64,000 nt of DNA from Eledone cirrhosa. Taxonomy: Eukaryota. The notes beneath the pieces are model-generated. The model had not been told where the DNA came from, made no database searches, and saw only the letters and a program-made list of their open reading frames with translations. Of this stretch, positions 4,301 to 50,926 are shown piece after piece (the stretch's first letter is position 1; the number at the start of each line of letters is the position of its first letter). Position numbers and translations under genes: made by a program. The stretch covers positions 188,294,001 through 188,358,000 of the forward strand of contig OZ024741.1 in the NCBI GenBank assembly GCA_964016885.1, read 5' to 3'.

Positions 4301-5219
4301 GTGGGTAGCTATGGATTAAGTTTACTAATAAAATTTTGGTATTTTCTTTGTTTTAGTTTATTTCTTTTATTTATTTATTATTTTTTTTTATAATAAGTAA
4401 AAATTGGAACTTCTTGAAACCACAAATGGGAGACAGAGGACTTGTAGCTGTTGAGGTTTTACATGCATCAGTGACAATGAAATACTTCTATGCCAATAAG
4501 CCACAGCAGAATTTGAATCCAGAGGGCAAGCCATGGCAAAAGATATCACAAAACATCTCAACCAATGCTCAAACATTTCCACCAATCCATTGCCCTAGAC
4601 TAATATCATATCTTATTGACGCTAAAAGAATGGAAGGCAAAGTTGACCCCAACAGAATTAACCTTCCATTTTCCCCCTAAACAAGGTTGAGAAAATAAGC
4701 ACCTGACAATGTTCTTTGGTTGATATAATCAGTTAAAAACCTTAAAGGGGGATCAATCCAAGATGCTTTTAGTCTAACCACTGCAACTAATACAATATTA
4801 ACTCTTTTTATACTGGCTTGTCAAAAACCACCTCTGATTCTATGAAACAAAACCACCCATTTTAAAGGGTTTCTATTGATATTAAAACCTTCCAACATAA
4901 TTTGATATAAAAACATTTTGTTAAATTATATTACAAATACCACCTTAATAATAATCATTAACATTATCATTTTTAGGTCAACCATTTTATGCTCGGACAA
5001 TTTTAAGTAATGTTTTTGAACCAGATGCCCTTCCTGATATCAAAAACTTTAGTTACTTTTAAGACACATAAAGATACTGCGCACCCATTCTAAACTGGAT
5101 ATACATAGGATACACACAGTTAAATTCTCCCAAAACTTCACAAATGAGTTAAGGGATTCAAATGCAAAAAAGAAAATGTATCACGTTTGTTAGATTCATG
5201 TAAAAGGAATATGTCTTAC

Positions 5220-5364
5220 CATAATTCACTGTCATTGCTTATGGTACGGAATCTTTTACTAACTTGAGCAGCTCGACACAAGTCAAACTCTAGTAGAAAA
5301 CTAAAAATCTTCAGCATCACTTCATCGGGTAATTTATCCTGGAAATACTCCTCTCCTGACGTAT
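5220..5364 (-). CDS. FBXO11: F-box-domain exon of FBXO11-like gene
   Basis: Translates (N)[48 protein letters not shown], closely resembling the FBXO11 F-box as I recall it ([25 protein letters not shown]). Acceptor is ...tttctatcaacAG and donor is TG|GTAAG. 145 nt, phase 1 in and phase 2 out. Confidence 0.9.
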
Positions 5365-5946
5365 CTGTTGATAGAAACAAAGCAAATTTTTTAAATACAT
5401 GTGTGTGTGTGAGTGTATATATTTGTACACGTGCGCGCACGCACACACATACACACGCACACACGTGCACTTTAAGATTTATAAGATTATAGATAATAGA
5501 AAATTGAAAACCAAGCATAAACAAGAGTCAGCATTCAATATGGATGCCTGGTTTTTGGTGTGGAATGGAAATATTGCTAATCCAGGGACAATTCAAATAA
5601 ATATCATTATTTCAATGAAATTCAGGTGACCAATATTCTATTGAATTGGTGTACAATATATACAACATCAGCATAAGAGTCTGTTTTACCTGCTAGCAAA
5701 GGTGGGGTGGGTCTTCACAGACCAAGTCAGTACTGAAGCATGTCTACTGGTCTCCCAGAGAAGAGGGACTCCACATCTCACTTGCACATTGTCCCACATT
5801 CTACCAAGTGCATGTTATCATGGTGCTAGCACTACAGGGGTTGCCATGTCTTTGACATATATATATATATATATATATAAACATATATAAATTTATATAT
5901 ATATATAAACATAAATTTTTATATATATATATATATATATATAAAC

Positions 5947-7160: not shown

Positions 7161-7331
7161 TACATATACATATATAAATATATATATATAAATAAATATA
7201 CATATACATATATATATATATAAATAAATATACATATATAAATATACATATATATATATATATATATAAATATATTTTGTTTCTGAATTTGTTTAGCAAG
7301 ATTCTTTATCTGAAAACGTGTGTTGAAATCG

Positions 7332-7800
7332 ATATTGTTATACTTTGGGAGGGTCATGTTGCCAATAAGAAACACAAGCACCAGTTGCTTTCACTCCAAT
7401 TTATTATAAATTAAATTATAAATTAAAAAATTTATAAATTTCTAGTGGTTGGTTGGTTCCACAACCGGACAGTTGTTCATATATTGTCAAAGTTCTTTCG
7501 TCACACATTCTGTGACCTCTTCAGTGACTGGGGATTCTTTTCTTTGTTTTGTGCCTCTCCTTTGTTCTGTCCTACGCCAGGAGAGGCACAAAATAAAGAA
7601 AACAATCCCCAGACACTGAAGAGGTCACAGAATGTGTGACAAAAGAACTTTGACAATATATGAACAACCGTCCGGTTGTGGAACCAACCAACTGGAAAAT
7701 ATTTTTAAATTTATAATTTAATTTATAATAAATTGGAGTGAAAGCAACTGGTGCTTGTGTTTCTTATTGGCAACATGACCCTCCCAAAGTATAACAATAT
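7332..7800. repeat. Long palindrome (~225-bp arms, 17-nt spacer), putative inverted Penelope-like terminus
   Basis: atattgttatactttgggagggtcatgttgcc...gtgcctctcct is the near-exact reverse complement of aggagaggcac...ggcaacatgaccctcccaaagtataacaatat. Each arm carries a hammerhead-like motif. Confidence 0.92.
7486..7528 (-). ncRNA. Minimal hammerhead-like motif (extra nucleotide before stem II, CUU site)
   Basis: gtca CTGAAGA g gtcaca-gaatg-tgtgac GAAA gaac TT tgac: stem I gtca/tgac, 6-bp stem II. The plus-arm copy at 7612-7654 has GAAA changed to AAAA. Confidence 0.55.
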
Positions 7801-9259: not shown

Positions 9260-9414
9260 GTAATAATAATAAATGTGAAGACTAAAATCCAAAGAGGGCT
9301 CGATAAGGATAAATACATATCAAATATATAAGAACCCTAGAGCAAATATTAAGATCCCATTAAGGATGAAAGCAGCGATTCTTAGCTTAATCTTTAATCT
9401 GTTATTATAATAAA
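9260..9414. repeat. Dispersed repeat shared with 50454-50680
   Basis: 9260-9350 is the reverse complement of ~50592-50680, and 9352-9414 is a direct match to ~50532-50594. Confidence 0.75.
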
Positions 9415-9639: not shown

Positions 9640-10083
<444 letters not shown>

Positions 10084-10127
10084 TATATATATATATAAAT
10101 ATACATATATATATAAATATACATATC

Positions 10128-10400
10128 GAGGCACATGGCTTAGTGGTTAGAGCATTGGCCTTGCAATCGAAAGGTTGTGAGTTAAATTCTCAGACCGGGT
10201 GATGTGTTGTTTCCTTGAGCAAGACACTTTATTTCACATTGCTCCAGTTGACTCAGCTGTAGAAATGAGATGATAGGACTCGGGTCCCTATCATTCCACT
10301 GTAAAGTGGTCGTGGAGGTGCCACGGCAAAAAAGCACCCAGCCCGTCCCACCCTTGCAAGCAGGGAAAAGCGGACGTAAAATGAAATGAATTGAATGATG
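10128..10400 (+). mobile_element. SINE family A (head-to-head with 9640-9963)
   Basis: gaggcacatggcttagtggttagagc...gcagggaaaagcggacgtaaaatga. Confidence 0.75.
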
Positions 10401-10611: not shown

Positions 10612-10786
10612 GAGGAGGCACAAAACAGATAGTCATTGAGGAGGCCACAGAATGTGTGACGAAAGAACTTTGACAAACGAATGAATAACGAGCAATAAAG
10701 ATAAAAATAAAGTGAAAATTATATGGTGTGTGTGTTTCTTTCTATTGGTAATATTGGCAACATGACCATCCCAAAATCTAACAATA
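10612..10786 (+). mobile_element. Single arm of the 7332-7800 repeat family with degenerate hammerhead (10632-10674)
   Basis: gtca TTGAGGA g gccacagaatgtgtgac GAAA gaactttgac ... ggcaacatgaccatcccaaaatctaacaatat followed by (TA)n. Confidence 0.7.
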
Positions 10787-11073
10787 TATATATATATATA
10801 TATTATAAATACTGTAACTTATATCGTACTGTAATTCTCGCATTATATTACCTTTTGTGTTTCAAGTTTTTGCATTATACAATATTTACAATGTGGGTTC
10901 AACATGTTAATCACGTCCTTGCTATTTGGTCCATATCTATGTTTGTAACTGCTCACTCTTAATCTTAGCCAACTTCTCCTTGATATCTTTCCTAAGCTTT
11001 AATAGATGTATACTCCATATTCTTCTGAGTTTTTGGCTTGTATTGGCCGATAGTGCTTCTTGTAGCTTTACTT

Positions 11074-14793: not shown

Positions 14794-16105
14794 TACTCTT
14801 TTACCTGTTTCAGCCATCTGGCTGAGGCCATCCTGGGGCACCGCCCTGTTGCTACACATTTTATCTCCAGCCTGTATTAGTTGGCCACTGGTGCAAGAGG
14901 GAGTTTGTTGCTGCTGCCCTTAGGTTTCCCTCGTGCCTTGCTGTGGGCTCATCCGGGATCCTGGATAGCAAGGTGTCGAGATGTTTCTTGAAGACATCCA
15001 CATCCACACCATGCAGATCTCTCAGATCCCTCGGCAGCTTGTTGAAAAGTTGAGGGCCTTGAACCCCAGGCGATTACAATATCTGCTTCTTATTCTAGTG
15101 ACGTTCTGTTTGACAGTTGGCCCAGCTCCCAATGCCCAAGTTTGGTGCTAGTCCCTCCAGGATTTTTCCACATGTAGATCACTGCGTATCCCTCCCGTCT
15201 TCGTTTCAAGGAGTAGAAGTTCAGTTCTTTTAGCCTCTCCCAGTAGCTTATCTCCTTCATCGTCGCAATCCTCTTGGTGTAGCTTCGCTGGATTGCATCA
15301 AGCTCCGTGGTTAGTTTAACACTATGGGGTGACCACAACTGGGAGTAATCAACTGGGAGTAATAGTCCAGGCGGCTTAGGACAAATGTCCTCCATAGTGT
15401 CAACATGGTGTCTCGGTCTCTTGTCCGGAAAGTCCTCAAGATCCAGCCAGCGAGTTGTCTGTACATTGTCGCCACTTTCATGATGTGTGATGAAAAAGAT
15501 GTATCATCGCTCATGTCTATACCCAGGTCTCGTATCGATTCTGACACGGAGATATCAGTCCCTCCTGGTCCGGCGTAACTGTGTTGTACTGTATTTGAGT
15601 TTGCAGGCTTGTATTGTAGGGCTTGGAATTTGCCAGCATTAAACTGCATGTTATTATCTTCCGCCCATTTGTATATGGCATCCAGATCTTGTTGTAAAAG
15701 GGCAGCGTCAGCCGGGTTTTTGAATGCCTGTGCTACCTTAGTGTCATCAGCATAGCTAGTGAGGGATGTTGTTGTATGTACTACAGAGGGCATGTCTGAG
15801 AGAGCCACCAAAAACAGTAGTGGTCCCATGACTGTGCCTTGGGGCACCCCACTTGTTATTGATGTTTCCTTTGAGAGGGCCCCGTTTGCTGCGACTGTCT
15901 GGCTTCTGTCCTTTAAGAAGTCATGCAGCCACTCACCTACTTTTCCAGTTATGCCAAGTCCGTGTAGTTTGTGACATATCATTCCGTGGTCGACCTTGTC
16001 AAAGGCCTTTGTAAAGTCAAGATATATGACATCCACATGTCAGCTGTCTAGCAGTTGTTTCAGTATCCAGTCATAGTGATGTAGCAGCTGTGTAAGGCAG
16101 CTTCT
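14794..16105 (-). mobile_element. 5'-truncated CR1/L2-group LINE (RT pseudogene plus 3' tail)
   Basis: DVIYLDFTKAFDKVDHG...SGVPQGTVMGPLLFL...YADDTK...LDAIQRSYTKRI..YWERLKELNFYSLKRRRE. Frameshift at a 14-bp tandem duplication (caactgggagtaat x2, ~15336-15363). Confidence 0.9.
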
Positions 16106-16594: not shown

Positions 16595-17738
16595 CATCAT
16601 CATCATCATCATCAACGTTTAACGTCCGTGTTCCACGCTTGCATGGGTTTGGACGGGGGTAGTCCCACTTGAGGCAAGAGTGATTGTCTTGCTCGCATAG
16701 GACTGTCTGGCAGGTTTTCTACAGTTGGATGCCCTTCCTAACACCAACCACATTTACAGTGTGGGTCTGGGAGGTTTTTACCGTGTTGCCTACACGGCCA
16801 CATTACAGCGTGGACTGTGTGTTTTTTTGTCGTGACACCTACACGATCTCATTTGTTTCGGCCTCGATGGCGCGGCACCAACATAACTTTACATAGAACG
16901 GGGTGGTGTGGATGGGGTGGGGGCGGGGGTGGTGGGACGGGGTGTATTTTGTTAGAGATGCCTACTGGCTGGAGTAGGTTTTACTATATATTTAGGTAAG
17001 GCGGGTCTTCTCTGTTACTGAGTACCGCCAAAGGTCTCGGTCCAGTGACATTGTCTTGGAGAGGTGTAAGTGTGTGATGTCGGAGTTTATCAGCTCGTCC
17101 CAGGTTTTCCTAGGTCTGCCTATTCCGTGACTACCGTCTATCTTTATTGCCCTGCACTTTGTTATACAGCTATCGACTTTCATGCGCATCACGTGTCCAT
17201 ACCAACGTAGCCTTCTCTCGAGTAAACAACATCTGATCCCTCTTATCTCTAATTTTTTCCTTAGTTCGTTTATGCTTTGCTGTTCACGTATATTACTGTT
17301 ACACATCCAGCGGAGCATGCAAGCTTCGTTCCTCTCTAGTCTGCGTATATCCTCTGCACACAATGCCCAGGTCTCACTGCCGTGCAGCATTGCTGTTCGT
17401 ATGCAGGCATCGTACAACCTGCCTTTCATTTTTAGTGAGAACCCTTTAGCAGCTAATAGTGGTATAAGCTCTCTGAACTTTTTCCAACCAGTTCTGACTC
17501 TAGCTACAGTACTTTCAGAGCACCCTCCCCCACTGCTGATTTTATCGCCCAGGTAACGGAAGCTGTCCACTATTTCTATAGAACCCTCTGCGCAATTGAA
17601 AGAGCTAGTAGTTTGTGGGCACTTGCTGCTACTTATTGCACCAGAGCACCGGCCACATGTAAAATCTATGTTCTTAGTTAGCTTACCTGTGATCCCACTA
17701 CATCTTTTATGCACCCATACTTTGCATTTAGGACATAA

Positions 17739-18264: not shown

Positions 18265-18597
18265 CATATAATGTTTAAGTATCGCTGGAGAGAAAAAAAA
18301 GGCAAGATAGGCGATACATATATTTAGTTGCCAATAGTTTGTGCATATGTGCTCAATACTCGTGCCTACAGGGTTAAATATTAAAATCGTCAATATTTAG
18401 TGGGCGAGAAAAAATAAGCAGAGCGATTATAACAGAAATGAATACAAGGAGTTTCAAACATATATATATATATATCTATATACACATATATATACATATA
18501 TATATACACATATATATACATATATATATATATACACATATATATACATATATATATATATATACACATATATATACATATATATATATATACACAT

Positions 18598-18666
<69 letters not shown>

Positions 18667-18835
18667 TATATATACACATATATATATATACACATATATA
18701 TATATACACATATATATACACACATATATATATATATATATACACATATATATATATACACATATATATACACATATATATATATGTATATATACACATA
18801 TATATACATATATATATATATATGTATATATACAC

Positions 18836-18866
<31 letters not shown>

Positions 18867-19032
18867 CACATATATATACACATATATATACATATATATA
18901 TAGATACATATATATATACACATATATATACATATATATATACATATATATATACATACATATATATATACATATATATATACATATATATATACATATA
19001 TATATACATACATATATATATGCATATATATA

Positions 19033-19697
19033 TATATATACATATATATATATCAAATCCTCTGCCTCCTTCACTGTATTTGTCACCAAAACTATGTCGT
19101 CGGCAAATTCAGCATCTGATACCTTTTTCACCTTAACTCTCCTGCTCTGAGCCGGTGCTACAGTAAAGCCAGAGTCCTGGTGTTTCTCCAGTGCAAGGCG
19201 CATACAATAGTCCACTACGATGATAAAAAGGTAGGGAGCCAATGTATCTCCCTGGAGCACTCCAGCCAGTATCTCAAAGAACTCTGTCATCCCATCAGGT
19301 GTAATGACTTGGACACTGACCAAGAAACTCACTCAGATGGTGGATGGGTGCTACACGAGAATGCTGAGGATGGCTCTGAACATTAATCAGTATACACTGA
19401 GGATGAAAAACTCAGAGCTGTATGGGAGTATCCCAAAAGTCAGCTCAAAAGTGACACAGAGGAGACTCAGGTTAGCTGGACATGCTCACTGACATCCAGA
19501 GTTGACATTGCACTCAGTACTCCTTTGGGAGCCCCTACATGGACACACTAGAAGAGGAAGACCAAGGTTAACGTATGTTGATGCCCTAAGGTCAGACACT
19601 GGTCTGTTGAAGATGCAGGACATGGCAGCGATAATGAGGGACAGAGACTGCTGGAGAGAACTCGTCCATGGATCTCGGGAATTTTACCCGCCTTAGA
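19033..19697. mobile_element. RTE-like LINE with internal inversion
   Basis: 19033-~19310 on minus encodes RT core VITPDG...[19 protein letters not shown]...EFADD. ~19305-19697 on plus encodes the C-terminus [22 protein letters not shown]...RRLRLAGH...GRPRLTYVD. Confidence 0.85.
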
Positions 19698-21381: not shown

Positions 21382-21422
<41 letters not shown>

Positions 21423-21424
<2 letters not shown>

Positions 21425-21700
21425 TTGTTATACTTGGGGAGGGTTATATTTGTGTAATATTGCCAGAATTAATAACAGAACACACTCACTGTTTGGTTGG
21501 TTTTCGCTTTACGCTTCTGTGTCTTTTATATCAGTAATCTAATTTATTCGGTCCTCAATGTTGCCATTGACTGACCAACAGTCAAAAATCATACAGATAC
21601 AATATAGACACAAACACAAATATATAGTTTATCAAAGTTCTTTAGTTGCACATCTGCAACATCGTCAGTGGTGCTATAGATTCCTCCCGTTGCATTGTAT
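21423..21700 (-). mobile_element. Diverged arm of the 7332-7800 family with degenerate hammerhead (21631-21672)
   Basis: acca CTGACGA t gttgca-gatg-tgcaac TAAA gaactttgat. Terminus ...accctcccaagtataacaatat abuts (TA)n. Confidence 0.65.
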
Positions 21701-22231: not shown

Positions 22232-22484
22232 GGAGGTGAGTTTTATTGTAGTACAATAAAGCAATGCAGATATCGGATAATATGTTGATTTAAAACTGCA
22301 CTATTCACAAGTGTTTTTTAACCTTCATATCATGTCTCCCTATTTTATCTGACGAAAACGCAAATGTCATCGCATGATGATATTTGTTTTTGAAATGCGC
22401 ATAATAAAATACATGGAACTCTTTTAACCATCTTTTGATCTTATTTATTATATATATATATATATATTTATTATTATTACTATA

Positions 22485-23931: not shown

Positions 23932-24836
23932 CCCAGTCCACACTGTAAACGTGGTTGATGTTAGGAAGGGCATCCAGCAGTAGAAAACCTGCCAGACAGT
24001 CCACGCTGTAATGTGGCCGTGTAGGCAACACGGTAAAAACCTCCCAGCCCCACACTGTAAATGTGGTTGGTGTTAGGAAGGGCATCCAGCTGTAGAAAAC
24101 CTGCCAGACAGTCCTATACGAGCAAGACAACCACTCTTGCCTCAAGTGGGTAATTCCCGTCTAAACCCATGCTACCGTGGAAGATAGACGTTAAATGATG
24201 ATGATGATGATGATACACATATCATCATCATCATCGTTTAACGTCCCTGTTCCACGCTTGCATGGGTTTGGACGGGGGTTTTCCCACTTGAGGCAAGAGT
24301 GGTTGTCTTGCTCGCATAGGACTGTCTGGCGGGTTTTCTACAGCTGGATGCCCTTCCTAACACCAACCACATTTACAGTGTGGGGCTGGGAGGTTTTTAC
24401 CGTGTTGCCTACACGGCCACATTACAGCGTGGACTGTCTGGCGTGTTTTCTACAGCTGGATGCCCTTCCTAACACCAACCACATTTACAGTGTGGGGCTG
24501 GGAGGTTTTTACCGTGTTGCCTACACGGCCACATTACAGTGTGGACTGTCTGGCGGGTTTTCTACAGCTGGATGCCCTTCCTAACACCAACCACATTTAC
24601 AGTGTGGGCTGGGAGGTTTTTACCGTGTTGCCTACACGGCCACATTACAACGTGGACTGTCTGGCATGTTTTCTACAGCTGGATGCTCTTCCTAACACCA
24701 ACCACATTTACAGTGTGGGACTGTGAGGTTTTTACCGTGTTGCCTACACGGTCACATTACAGCGTGGACTGTGTGTTTTTTTGTCGTGACACCTACACGA
24801 TCTCGTTTGTTTCGGCCTGGATGTTGTGGCACCAAC

Positions 24837-29430: not shown

Positions 29431-29728
29431 CCCAAATATCTGCAGTTTCTTCTCTTTGTCTCTATTACTGCTGCTATAATAGCCTCTGCTCCACTCATCA
29501 TTCCTCTTCCTCTTATCATTCATACTATATCTCACATCCTAGACCCTGCATATACACATCACCTGGTCCTTACAAATTTCTTCCCTGTTCACACAGATGT
29601 TGAAGCTGAACATGAAAACACATCAATCAATCTAAGCAAGAGTACTGTCCTTCCTTTGCTGTCTAACTTGGTCAATCGAAGCTAAAAATTACACAAGTAA
29701 AACAGTCAACAAGAAATATTAGACTCAC

Positions 29729-29923
29729 TCATCTCAATGTCGCATGTGATCTTCGCCTGCTTCCTTCGTTTGGCTGGAACAGGGGGAGTAGTTGGCAATG
29801 GAACTGTAATTTCTGCAACTTCTCGTCGCCGTAGGTGATATCGTGTGACATGTTTCTCATTTGCATTGCTATGTGATAACTCCTCTGGTAAACTGGCCCG
29901 TTGTTCAACTGGCGGAAGGTTTC
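29729..29923 (-). CDS. FBXO11: Upstream coding exon of FBXO11-like gene (basic N-terminal region)
   Basis: Acceptor ...catttaaacAG and donor A|GTGAGT. The open frame NLPPVEQRASLPEELSHSNANEKHVTRYHLRRREVAEITVPLPTTPPVPAKRRKQAKITCDIEM ends in phase 1 and joins the F-box exon in frame (A+AT=Asn). YHLRRR and AKRRK resemble YQLRRK and AKRAR, which precede the FBXO11 F-box. Confidence 0.8.
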   Translation of the reverse strand, partial: ETFRQLNNGPVYQRSYHIAMQMRNMSHDITYGDEKLQKLQFHCQLLPLFQPNEGSRRRSHATLR

Positions 29924-30362
29924 CTGTTTAAATGTAGAAATAAGGTAAAGTAAATAAAGTGACCATTGCAAACATGTTCCTGTCGTTTGTGTGATATTTT
30001 AATCATTAATCATCAGCTATCTCTGAGAAATATATTTAATGTAATATTGATAATAATGGTTTCTTATATAGGCACAAGGCCAGCAATTTTGGGGGAGGGG
30101 AAAGAAAGTCGATTAAATCGATCCCAGTGTGAGACTGGTACTTTATTTTATCAACTCCGTAAGGATGAAAGGCAAAGTTAAACTCGGCGGGATTTGAACT
30201 CAGATCGTAAAGGGCCGTAACTCTATGCTGAAAAGCATGGCGTCCGACCCTCTACCGGTACTGCCAATCCACCATGATAATAATGAAATCAATATCACAT
30301 TAAATATATTCCAAAGAGATAACATCAATCAATTAAAATAGCACACAGAAGACAGATTTTTA

Positions 30363-38603: not shown

Positions 38604-38634
<31 letters not shown>

Positions 38635-38680
38635 TAAAGTTAAATAAAAGTCAAATGATTAAAATTTAGCTTCGGTTATT

Positions 38681-38735
38681 ACTGCTATATATATTTCAGT
38701 GACAGCCATCTTTGGCTGTGACCTCTTCAGGCAGT
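38681..38735 (-). ncRNA. Complete type-I hammerhead, AUA site (host-sense copy)
   Basis: actgc CTGAAGA ggt-c-acagcca-aaga-tggctgt-c-act GAAA tatat ATA gcagt. Confidence 0.8.
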
Positions 38736-39070
38736 TTGAATTAGTATGGTATAGACAAGTACATATGTTGTTTAGGTGTATAATATTGTCAATACTCTGA
38801 TATGCCCAGTTCCTTGTTGGGTTGTTAATTCACTGAGGAACTGGAGTCATATGAATTCAAACAAACGAATTTCAGTGTCAAAGGTCCCCTTCTCCTGGGG
38901 ACCTTTGAGAGTAGAAGGGGACCTTTGACACTGAAATTCGTTTGTTTGAATTCATATGACTCCAGTTCCTCAGTGAATTAACAACCCAACAAGGAACTGG
39001 GCATATCAGAGTATTGGCAATATTATACACCTAAACAACATATGTACTTGTCTATACCATACTAATTCAA

Positions 39071-39125
39071 ACTGCCTGAAGAGGTCACAGCCAAAGATGG
39101 CTGTCACTGAAATATATATAGCAGT
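39071..39125 (+). ncRNA. Complete type-I hammerhead, AUA site (mirror copy)
   Basis: Identical motif on plus, with predicted cleavage after 39120. Immediately followed by AATAAA. Confidence 0.8.
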
Positions 39126-39359
39126 AATAAATGAAGCTAAATTTTAATCATTTAACTTTTATTTAACTTTATTTTACACTACTCCGGAGTAACCAAACCA
39201 ACCTGCGCACTTCGTCGAGTGCTCCAGCCTGCATACTGAGGTGTTGGTATACAACCAACATAAACTCAAAATCTATATATAGACATACATATATGTTAGA
39301 ATTTGATTAGTTTCAGCTGAAAATGGCAGGCAACCATACAACTATTAACTTTTTCACTA

Positions 39360-39588
39360 TTAACCCTTTAGCATTTAAACCGGCCATATACGGCCAGAAT
39401 TCTCTCACCTCTTTCTGTTCAAACTAGCTGTAACCAGCCACTCATACTGATGTTAAGGTATTGTTCTCAAAATAAATAATATCAAAATCTCATAGATTCG
39501 ATATTATGTGAGATAATTATGTGAGATAAAGCCTTTACTGTGAAAATATAATAGTAAATATAGAGTAATGTAAATGCTAAAGGGTTAA
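39360..39588 (+). mobile_element. Intact piggyBac-type MITE (221 bp, TTAA target-site duplication)
   Basis: TTAA|CCCTTTAGCATTTA...TAAATGCTAAAGGG|TTAA: perfect 14-bp TIRs with CCC/GGG ends and no ORF. Further copies at 42239-42450, 45578-45800, 55231-55400 (truncated), 58348-58548 and 58745-58928. Confidence 0.88.
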
Positions 39589-39619
39589 GCTAGTATTTGA
39601 AAAATAATCTAATATAGCT

Positions 39620-43604: not shown

Positions 43605-44230
43605 GCTTTTCTTTTTCTTCACCCACTTATTCCTGAGAGGTTTGTGAGAGCAGAGTCCTGAAACACTCCTTCCAGTGGGTCCTGTCACAAGCAACCGTTT
43701 CCAACTAATCCAGCTGGATCCCCAAGTGAGACCAGCCAAGCTCATGGATGTTATCCAGCCATCTTGCTTGGAGTCTACTCATGAGTCTCCTACCAGTTCG
43801 TTTTGCCCATAAAATTTGTTCAACGATTCTTTCCTGAGACATTCTAACCACATGCCCATAGTACTGGAGCTGTGATCTCTCAATTCGGAGAAGTAGCGAC
43901 CCTGCATGGAGCGGCTCGCTGATCTCCAAGCTATGCACTCTATCAAGTAACATTACTCCAAAGACCTTTGAAGGAACCCCATTTCGGTTGCTTGTATTCG
44001 CGAGCATATTTTTGGGGGTTATTACCCAAGATTCATGACCATTGGTAAGGGTTAGCATGGTACCGAATTGAAGATAGTGAGTTTGGCTTTTACACCTACC
44101 TTCCTTCTTCTGATTTGAATGCTGAAGTTGGTGCATTACTGCATCAGCTCCTACAATTCTTGCACCTAATTTAGCCTCCTACCTTCCATCACTTGTGAAT
44201 ACGACCTCGAGATACTTGAACTCCTCCATT
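43605..44230 (-). mobile_element. Degenerate RTE-clade LINE 3' region
   Basis: LTNGHESWV...LLLRIERSQLQYYGHVVRMSQERIVEQIL...RWLDNI, with upstream FKYLEV-like motif. Confidence 0.75.
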
Positions 44231-48730: not shown

Positions 48731-50453
48731 ATTATCATTGTCATTATTATGAACTAGCAGAATCGGTAGAGCATTGGACACTCTGATTCGTAGCATAGAG
48801 TTACGTCCCTTTACGTTCTGAGTTCAAATCCCGCCGAGGTTAACTTTGCCTTTCATCTTTATGGGGTTGATAAAATAAAGTACCAGTAATGCACTGGGGT
48901 AATTGCTGGCCTTGTGCCAAAAGTAGAAACAATTATTATTATTATTATTATCATTATTGTTTCTACTTTTGGCACAAGGCCAGCAATTACCCCAGTGCAT
49001 TACTACTACTTTATTTATCGACCCCATAAGGATGAAAGGCAAAGTTAACCTTGGCGGGATTTGAACTCAGAACGTAAAAGGACGTAACTCTATTATATAT
49101 AGTAGCATTTATCTATTTGTTCAAAGTTGATGATTCACACCACCAATACTCAGAGTTTCTTGTTATGTGGTATCATAAATTTGGGACTGTGAAAGAGTCA
49201 TAGCCATTTATTTCATTTCAGATAAGAATGTGTACGTGTATGTGTGAAGGAGTGTATGTTCATGTATCTATATGTTTACATGTGTGTATGCATGTGTATA
49301 TATGTATATATGTTTGTATGTATGTATATGATTCCAATAATTTCTCCAGCAATATTCCTGTTATTACAAACTTCACTTCCTTTAATATAAAGTCAACTTC
49401 TGAGCAGTGGAATGGCAAATAACAAATATTCCCCTGCTTTGGCTTTAATTTATTCATCTGCCATACATCATCTATCATCTATCATGCATACATATGTATG
49501 TGCACATATGCATACACATACTCACACATGCATACACATACACACACATGCATACACATACACATGCACATAATGATAATTATGATCATCATCATGTGCT
49601 GCAGCTTAATTGAGATCTACACAATCAGCTGATGACTCACTCTCTTTCTCTCTCTCCCTCTCTCTCTCAAACCTCACGTTTTATCAATGAAGTATGCTTG
49701 CTGACAACAACAACAACAACAATAGTGGTAACAGTAGTAGCAGTAACATCAATTGGCAAGTCTACAAGAGAGATTACCATCTACTGGTGCTACATTATGT
49801 TTATTTAATTGTTGTTGTTGTTGTTGTTTTACCAATATACACAGCAATCAGAGAAACATGAGCAAAATTAATATAATAATAAAGGAAGAAAAAATGACTA
49901 ACAGAAGCTAGAAGCCTATAGCGAAAATTAGTAAAAAAAAGTATATGGAAATTGCAGAACACATACCTATATTTTACAATCAATCACCAACACTAATTTT
50001 AATAAGACATTAAACGTTACATTTTAGGTGTGAACCCCAGTTTTTAGAATAGGCACACCATATGCCTGCATGTTGTAAAAGGCAACTAAAAGGGTTGGTA
50101 TCAGGAAGGGCATCCAACTATAAAATATTGTCTTGTCATCTAACCCATGCCAGCATGGAAAAGTAGATGCAATGACGCTGACACAACAGAATTTATTCAT
50201 ATATATATTTTTTTAATGTTATTAAATTTTATTAAGATACACATTATCTGTTCATGAGAACAAGGCTTACAGAAACAAAAGAGAGTAGAGTGCGGTGTAT
50301 TCTATATTCATTTACTAGTTTTACTAAATTACCAAATTAATTCCGTTTTGATTTGCTTGAAAGAATATGGTGACAATGTTCCAAGCACAGTGAAACAGCA
50401 TTAATTCTGTAAAACTAGTAAATGGATAAAGTATATATATATATATATATATT

Positions 50454-50596
50454 TATTTATTAAAATAATAGATTAAAGTTTAAGCAAAGAATCGCTGCTT
50501 TCACCCTTAACGGGATCGTCTGAGTTTCAGAAGATCCTGTTAAGGGTGAAAGCAGCGATTCTTTGCTTAAACTTTAGTCTGTTATTTTAATAAATA
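50454..50596. repeat. 143-bp palindrome with 3-nt centre
   Basis: tatttattaaaataatagattaaagtttaagcaaagaatcgctgctttcacccttaacgggatcgtctga-gtt-tcagaagatcctgttaagggtgaaagcagcg...ttattttaataaata. Confidence 0.92.
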
Positions 50597-50678
50597 TTTG
50601 CTCTACGGTTCTTATATATTTGATATATATTTATCCTTATCGAGCTCTTTGGATTTTAGTCTTCAAATTTATTATTAT

Positions 50679-50714
<36 letters not shown>

Positions 50715-50826
50715 TATAACAACAAAAATATAAAATATAATGAAGCGAAAACCAATCAAAACCAAACAGTGAGTATGTTTTACTACTTATTTCTGGCAAT
50801 ATAACAACATGACCCTCCCCAAATAT

Positions 50827-50926
<100 letters not shown>

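Follow-up and report, generated by a model that had tools for sequence, protein, structure and literature searches.

The window analyzed here, a stretch of 64,000 nucleotides from Eledone cirrhosa, contains a long palindrome with a hammerhead ribozyme motif on each strand, which raises the question of whether such a structure is real and, if so, what kind of mobile element produced it. The initial annotation described a 539-bp palindrome with near-identical arms of ~260 bp, and this description is borne out: the arms (38634-38896 and 38910-39172) are 263 nt each, 98% complementary, and spaced by 13 nt. They differ at five pairs of positions (38652/39154, 38674/39132, 38675/39131, 38789/39017, and 38894/38912), none of which (0/5) falls inside the hammerhead motif of either arm. 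The two motifs are located as follows.

38681..38735, minus strand (the host-gene strand): type I hammerhead motif of the inverted arm, core 38730-38724, predicted cut after 38686
39071..39125, plus strand: type I hammerhead motif of the direct arm, predicted cut after A39120, self-complementary ATATATAT at 39112-19

On the plus strand, helix I is formed by ACTGC (39071-75) and GCAGT (39121-25), the core comprises CUGAAGA (39076-82) and GAAA (39109-12), and helix II (39083-39108) spans 11 positions with a basal G.U and one C.C mismatch. An ATG at 39097, 24 nt ahead of the predicted cut, opens a frame that ends after 16 codons. The annotation of a complete hammerhead in each arm stands for the type I core, which is intact on each strand, but not for helix III, which amounts to 2 bp with a self-complementary loop (A15.1-U16.1 spans ATATATAT). 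The placement near the outer end is accurate with respect to the arm, with the cut site 52 nt inward of the arm end, and less so with respect to the element, whose 3′ end is 153 nt away. A relaxed hammerhead motif scan of the window returned five matches, two of which are the pair at 38634-39172, compared to a mean of 0.53 in 30 shuffles. Rfam, searched with the window, gave nothing at the gathering score and no hammerhead family at E ≤ 10.

The element extends beyond its palindrome. The 14-mer TATATATAGACATA is present in direct orientation at 38623-36 and 39274-87, with no third site on either strand of the window. This direct pair delimits the insert as 38637-39273, bounded by a 14-bp target-site duplication (TSD), and the boundaries given initially (38634..39172) were therefore too narrow. 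The 637-bp insert consists of an inverted arm, a 9-nt templated patch, a direct arm, and a 101-nt one-sided tail. Data on other copies of the family, cited here and below, are contigs and reads from 8/23 listed public sequencing runs (numbered with X), none of the 23 being recorded as RNA.

38623..38636, plus strand: left target-site duplication TATATATAGACATA, closing a (TA)n tract; 3 nt of microhomology with the arm at its right end (ATA)
38637..38896, minus strand: copy of the element end in inverted orientation and without the tail (inverted pLTR), mirroring 38910-39169
38897..38905, plus strand: junction patch, which meets native sequence through TGA at 38906-08
38906..39172, plus strand: direct copy of the element end, comprising the pLTR and ~45 nt of upstream sequence
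38952..38959, no strand: internal 8-bp palindrome TCATATGA, the fold-back point in other copies, close to the family's common 5′ boundary
39173..39273, plus strand: one-sided tail of 101 nt; the family depth ends at ~39262-39277
39274..39287, plus strand: right target-site duplication TATATATAGACATA; other copies have pure (TA)n here

The center of the palindrome is not a plain loop, as segment 38897-38908 has the same sequence as 38917-38928 and is also found, reverse-complemented, at 38878-38889; the loose ends of other copies upstream of 38906 are unlike the junction patch. At the opposite end, the tail stops directly past a predicted stem-loop, and 18/21 of its final nucleotides are A or C. 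Position 39282 reads T instead of G in 17801/17913 of the depth in X2, the other copies being pure (TA)n beyond the tail. The G and C of the 14-mer thus derive from the target, not from the element. In six frames, the insert has short frames only, with no RT or GIY-YIG coding sequence. For the sole frame that is open across the tail, a search for relatives gave one candidate and none at E ≤ 1, and the family variants within the tail frames appear by eye to be mostly nonsynonymous. A 96-nt intron that would link the ATG frame to the tail was considered and dropped because of its poor acceptor. An exact 21-nt pattern had no match in metagenome or viral contigs.

The explanation that best fits the locus, to which we assign a probability of roughly three in four, is that the palindrome is part of one young 637-bp insertion of a severely 5′-truncated Penelope-like element (PLE), with the mirror arm probably built during insertion. 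A hammerhead within the pLTR, an adjacent inverted 5′-truncated copy, a tail at one end only, and a TSD at a (TA)n target are all present. The TSD, the one-sided tail, the (TA)n targeting, the 5′ truncation, and the fold-back junctions of other copies support the earlier proposal of a recent inverted PLE terminus. The layout is already known as the insertion footprint of EN+ Penelope-like elements, which is described in many animals; an inverted 5′-truncated copy combined with a one-sided tail is given as the typical PLE arrangement (PMC8557442; PMC8969392; PMC2377424). Counting against a PLE, the hammerhead is without the extra base usual in PLE hammerheads between 9 and 10.1 and has a G.U at 10.1-11.1, the tail measures 101 nt versus the usual 30-40, the sharp 5′ boundary fits an ORF-less family of ~320 nt equally well, and RT or GIY-YIG coding sequence is neither in the insert nor linked to the family. 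Since no RT or GIY-YIG ORF can be linked, the PLE membership is architectural.

The Adineta elements Pen2a/Pen2 (PMC3846280; PMC8557442) share with the insert the head-to-head inverted 5′-truncated copy, the tail at one end, the single TSD pair, a palindrome at the fold-back point, a pLTR-sized end of ~220 nt, and a microsatellite target; inverted pLTRs, TSDs, and palindromes at junctions are reported for Adineta in PMC3846280. The insert differs from these elements in lacking any ORF, in its tail (101 nt, not 30-40), and in its TSD (14 bp, not 8-10). The hammerheads described for the PLEs of Schistosoma and other animals (PMC4209133) are likewise type I, with a long helix II, a 5-bp helix I, and a very small helix III whose palindromic form suits cleavage as a dimer, whereas the insert has no extra base at 9/10.1, a G.U at 10.1-11.1, and a helix III of 2 bp rather than none. 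A 2014 study (PMC4209133) described hammerheads paired on opposite strands at distances of 100-700 bp, and the cores of the insert are 346 nt apart. The account of O. vulgaris in PMC13282606 lists 31 recently active Penelope-like families, with hammerheads absent from its main text. Our search found no publication on octopus PLE hammerheads; the supplements of PMC8557442, PMC4209133, and PMC13282606 may already hold the family.

A second family in the window, at 7275-7796 with the element on the minus strand, follows the same plan. Its arms (7333-7561 and 7579-7796) are identical at 214/221 aligned positions, with 8 internal gap positions and a 17-nt spacer, and it has a hammerhead motif per arm, a one-sided tail of 58 nt, and a 13-bp duplication. 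The duplication is of low complexity and occurs 54 times in the window, which makes it weak evidence, and in the plus-strand hammerhead copy AAAA replaces GAAA. Further pieces of this family are present at 10631-10787, 21422-21450, and 50805-50834. Judging from this second family, the palindromic hammerhead layout is routine in the Eledone cirrhosa genome.

We give almost no credence to an artefact in which assembly or library preparation folded the sequence back on itself. The flanks are not mirrored, the TSD is direct, the tail is one-sided, the arms carry five mismatches, and the center patch is templated. The depth with non-family letters at 39017/38912 was 16.6/15.6 in X2 and 26.2/0 in X3, which in X2 is about one locus's worth and could also reflect a third letter. 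An artefact would nevertheless be compatible with the coverage of the locus: none of the listed reads and contigs spans the insert's own junction or its whole length, and the right flank at 39310-45 has zero depth in X2, X3, X21, and X7, a hole of a kind that proves nothing. A depth of 22 at 39300-39340 in X1 was tried as a single-copy baseline and dropped, as X2 and X3 have 0 there.

The origin of the mirror arm by a later DNA rearrangement, or by two separate insertions at one site, is very unlikely. Both arms are enclosed by one direct TSD pair, and the inverted arm begins at the TSD and has no tail, which is also the arrangement of the second family and of PLE insertions in the literature. 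Both arms are also identical at every family-variable site listed, and 4/5 of the arm mismatches are right-arm letters absent from nearly all other copies (0 to 0.44% residual depth). The agreement at the listed family-variable sites indicates that one template served for both arms, which have drifted by 1.9% since. A rearrangement would find parallels in the window, which has other head-to-head or tail-to-tail repeat pairs, and in the center patch, which resembles end-joining repair.

The public runs indicate a large and heavily truncated family. The summed contig depth over the element is ~4-10 × 10^5 (X2 and X3) versus 6-37 for the single contigs listed; as summed contig depth is no copy number, the resulting family size on the order of 10^4 copies is an order of magnitude only. 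In X2, the depth falls from 485,504 (38990-39005) to 13,594 (38910-25). The depth remaining by 38910-25 is 2.8% in X2 and 2.6% in X3, which represents heavy 5′ truncation and places the 5′ start of most copies at roughly 38930 to 38975. In some copies, sequence common to X1, X2, X3, and X7 extends further 5′, beyond 38906; ~30 nt of it are visible as loose ends, and this shared sequence indicates that longer forms of the family exist. Over 39070-39133, the depth is doubled in both X2 and X3, for which short inverted arms may be responsible, or else diverged subfamilies similar to the element in the ribozyme alone. Element pieces (38700-39294) up to 99-100% alike were also detected in X5, X6, and X7, runs labelled as three other organisms. 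In X7, the depth upstream of 38926 is 41.8 versus 147-412, a far larger share than X2 and X3 retain, and longer copies may therefore be more frequent in X7.

The loss of ~97% of the depth across roughly 60 nt on the 5′ side could also mark the true start of an ORF-less ribozyme family of ~320 nt, of the non-LTR retrozyme type, that borrows PLE enzymes and of which the insert would be a monomer with an inverted arm. We regard this as unlikely, though it accounts for the failure to find an ORF. The length, low GC, and type I hammerhead match those given for retrozymes (PMC7229834), which are reportedly pLTR derived (bioRxiv 2026.07.22.740005), and the high copy number is a further trait in common with metazoan non-LTR retrozymes as characterized in these two sources. 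Retrozymes are, however, defined there by tandem repeats and circular RNA (PMC7229834; bioRxiv 2026.07.22.740005), whereas the insert is inverted and not head-to-tail, and 150-450-bp head-to-tail repeats are not found at 38637-39273. Unlike in tandem arrays, 0 of the 11 joints listed tie the 3′ end back to the 5′ boundary in a unit-length tandem, in contigs that drop rare forms. The longer forms that extend 5′ of 38906 in X1, X2, X3, and X7 also argue against a ~320-nt unit, and the long helix II and 5-bp helix I suit the PLE type. Partial tandem master copies (pLTR-ORF-pLTR), a trait of PLEs, were not seen among the 24 loose ends listed (365 further exist). Junctions were also considered as marks of the ribozyme cut site, an idea rejected because 0/11 listed joints fall at 39120/21.

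Fold-back is also seen in other copies, notably at TCATATGA (38952-59). In X2, eight contigs have the reverse complement of 38960-75 ahead of 38952, that is, a hairpin centered on TCATATGA. In X21, one end of each listed opposite-strand joint (5/5) falls at 38952-59 and the other at 38960, 38992, 39071, 39091, or 39239, and the joint 38952/38960 is represented by 8 reads with about six starts. As the fragments of the restriction library X21 end at AATT sites, its joints were given less weight; the five opposite-strand joints are not AATT-to-AATT. Read ends in X21 at 38949, 38976, 39064, and 39143, together with the loose ends there, were rejected as element ends because these are AATT sites and the ends were taken for restriction artefacts.

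The fold-back point common to the eight X2 contigs and eight X21 reads, and the single TSD pair around the entire unit, could suggest a defined fold-back element, with the complete palindrome as its unit of copying. This is highly improbable, because the insert's center differs from that point and the inverted partners vary. The center junction of the insert is not amplified in the runs, and the junctions of other copies differ among themselves; the X2 depth of 851 in bin 38894-38909 is, by arithmetic, about that expected from copies matching just 38906-09. Moreover, RNA paired over 263 bp would serve poorly as a template and would have its ribozyme buried. A fold-back non-autonomous ribozyme retroelement, the other possibility raised in the initial annotation, accordingly finds no backing in a junction that is not multi-copy and in copies that fold back elsewhere.

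Returning to the truncated PLE, the enzyme, a PLE endonuclease/RT, would be provided by another genomic locus and would introduce two nicks, one per strand and offset by 14 nt, where a (TA)n tract borders other sequence, giving rise to the TSD. Reverse transcription of the element RNA would be primed by both 3′ ends and would begin internally at two positions, namely 39273, where the tail ends, and 39169-72, which is 101-104 nt upstream and shows 3-nt microhomology. The two cDNAs would stop almost together (38906 and 38910) and would be joined head to head via a 9-12-nt templated patch. The sequence shows that both arms pass through the cut site, so the template RNA was uncut there. Within the PLE reading, we lean toward this double priming by a slight preference, and regard a single cDNA folding back on itself as a tentative alternative of lower probability; self-priming of one cDNA was proposed for the palindromic junctions of Adineta (PMC3846280). 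Either route yields one junction with 3-nt microhomology and one without, so a single copy cannot discriminate between them, and the origin of PLE inverted ends is described as still open (PMC8557442).

In vitro, the PAc protein of the anole Poseidon element cuts AT-rich DNA on both strands and extends each of them, starts reverse transcription at two internal sites whose interval corresponds to the tail, with one start at an A+C-rich stem-loop, and uses mainly uncut RNA as the template (PMC11167929). The insert shares with PAc the A+C-rich stem-loop end, the two ends parted by the tail, the AT-rich target, the copying of an uncut ribozyme, and an ATG in helix II before the cut (24 nt here, 26 in PAc). 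It differs in that its ATG frame stops after 16 codons and in that it is known from sequence alone.

The predicted fate of the ribozyme in RNA depends on how much of the insert is transcribed. The pairing probability of helix I is ~0.7 in the isolated 76-nt motif and 0.003-0.008 in a whole single arm, and in the full insert all hammerhead pairs on either strand have a predicted probability of 0.000. The folding thus agrees with the earlier claim that the ribozyme is sequestered in a full read-through RNA and contradicts the claim that the second arm alone could fold it, at least at equilibrium. Equilibrium folding ignores co-transcriptional folding and help from proteins, so the chance of cleavage is lowered and not removed. 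On either strand, the ribozyme is located in the arm that is transcribed second, and read-through RNA is therefore predicted to pair it away, leaving it buried and uncut in a 263-bp duplex. A PLE origin would be compatible with a single arm that fails to cleave, given that no cleavage was seen for a single PLE hammerhead of Schistosoma (PMC4209133) and that the anole PLE hammerhead required protein (PMC11167929).

We propose that the hammerhead is a passenger of the pLTR. Among the variable sites listed, 1/55 ribozyme positions are variable versus 31/306 outside (p = 0.029). The test drops four private letters and three target positions, and in the worst case with 5 unlisted rows p = 0.67, so that these counts are no more than suggestive of selection on the ribozyme. 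The one variable position, 39108 T>C, accounts for ~39-41% of the family depth and converts G.U to G-C.

Two exons in the window place the insert with respect to a host gene.

5219..5368, minus strand: next exon of the FBXO11-like host gene, 98% identical to Octopus sinensis F-box only protein 11-like
29721..29927, minus strand: exon of the FBXO11-like host gene, residues 35-103 of P0001

The intron between these exons is 24 kb long, and the first coding exon, for the first 34 residues, was not found in the window. The insert is probably located within a long intron of the FBXO11-like gene, to judge from the exon order and minus-strand transcription, with the upstream exon not located. A 230-nt repeat at 39359-39590, 85 nt to the right of the insert, has a very high copy number and sharp ends; end-to-start joints (39588 back to 39359-60) were present in 4/4 runs compared.

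Taken alone, the insert carries little weight, being one footprint of a known kind of retroelement, and its value is that of a clean young specimen. In each of the ~10^4 short copies, a junction and the two sites of priming are preserved, and a tally of these would allow double priming to be tested against fold-back. An excess of such palindromes in introns, should there be one, would provide octopus with long double-stranded RNA, and RNA of the full palindrome is a plausible ADAR/Dicer substrate, as was suggested initially. Coleoids show heavy A-to-I editing. A more far-reaching and doubtful scenario is that octopods host an active ORF-less ribozyme element of ~320 nt, its RNA beginning at TCATATGA, that is copied twice per landing; the mirror arm would silence the ribozyme in host transcripts, so that insertions would be tolerated in introns and would supply thousands of ADAR/Dicer duplexes to a heavily editing lineage.

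Several other repeats were observed in the window. Solo type I hammerhead-like motifs at 22349 (plus strand) and 51325 (minus strand) have a TTTTAT/ATAAAA helix I and each lie near (TA)n; no further copies of them were found in the window. A 143-bp palindrome beside (TA)n at 50454-50680 has a one-sided extension and no hammerhead by motif scan, and in a related sequence at 9261-9414 the extension is attached to a single inverted arm. Frames at 15311-16039, 17131-17700, 18454-19332, and 43705-44178 resemble, by eye, parts of the proteins of non-LTR retrotransposons. Inverted pairs of SINE-like repeats, 92-96% alike, are centered on microsatellites at 23938-24495, 48795-49093, and 9746-10342, and the first of these pairs includes a tandemly repeated 110-nt unit.
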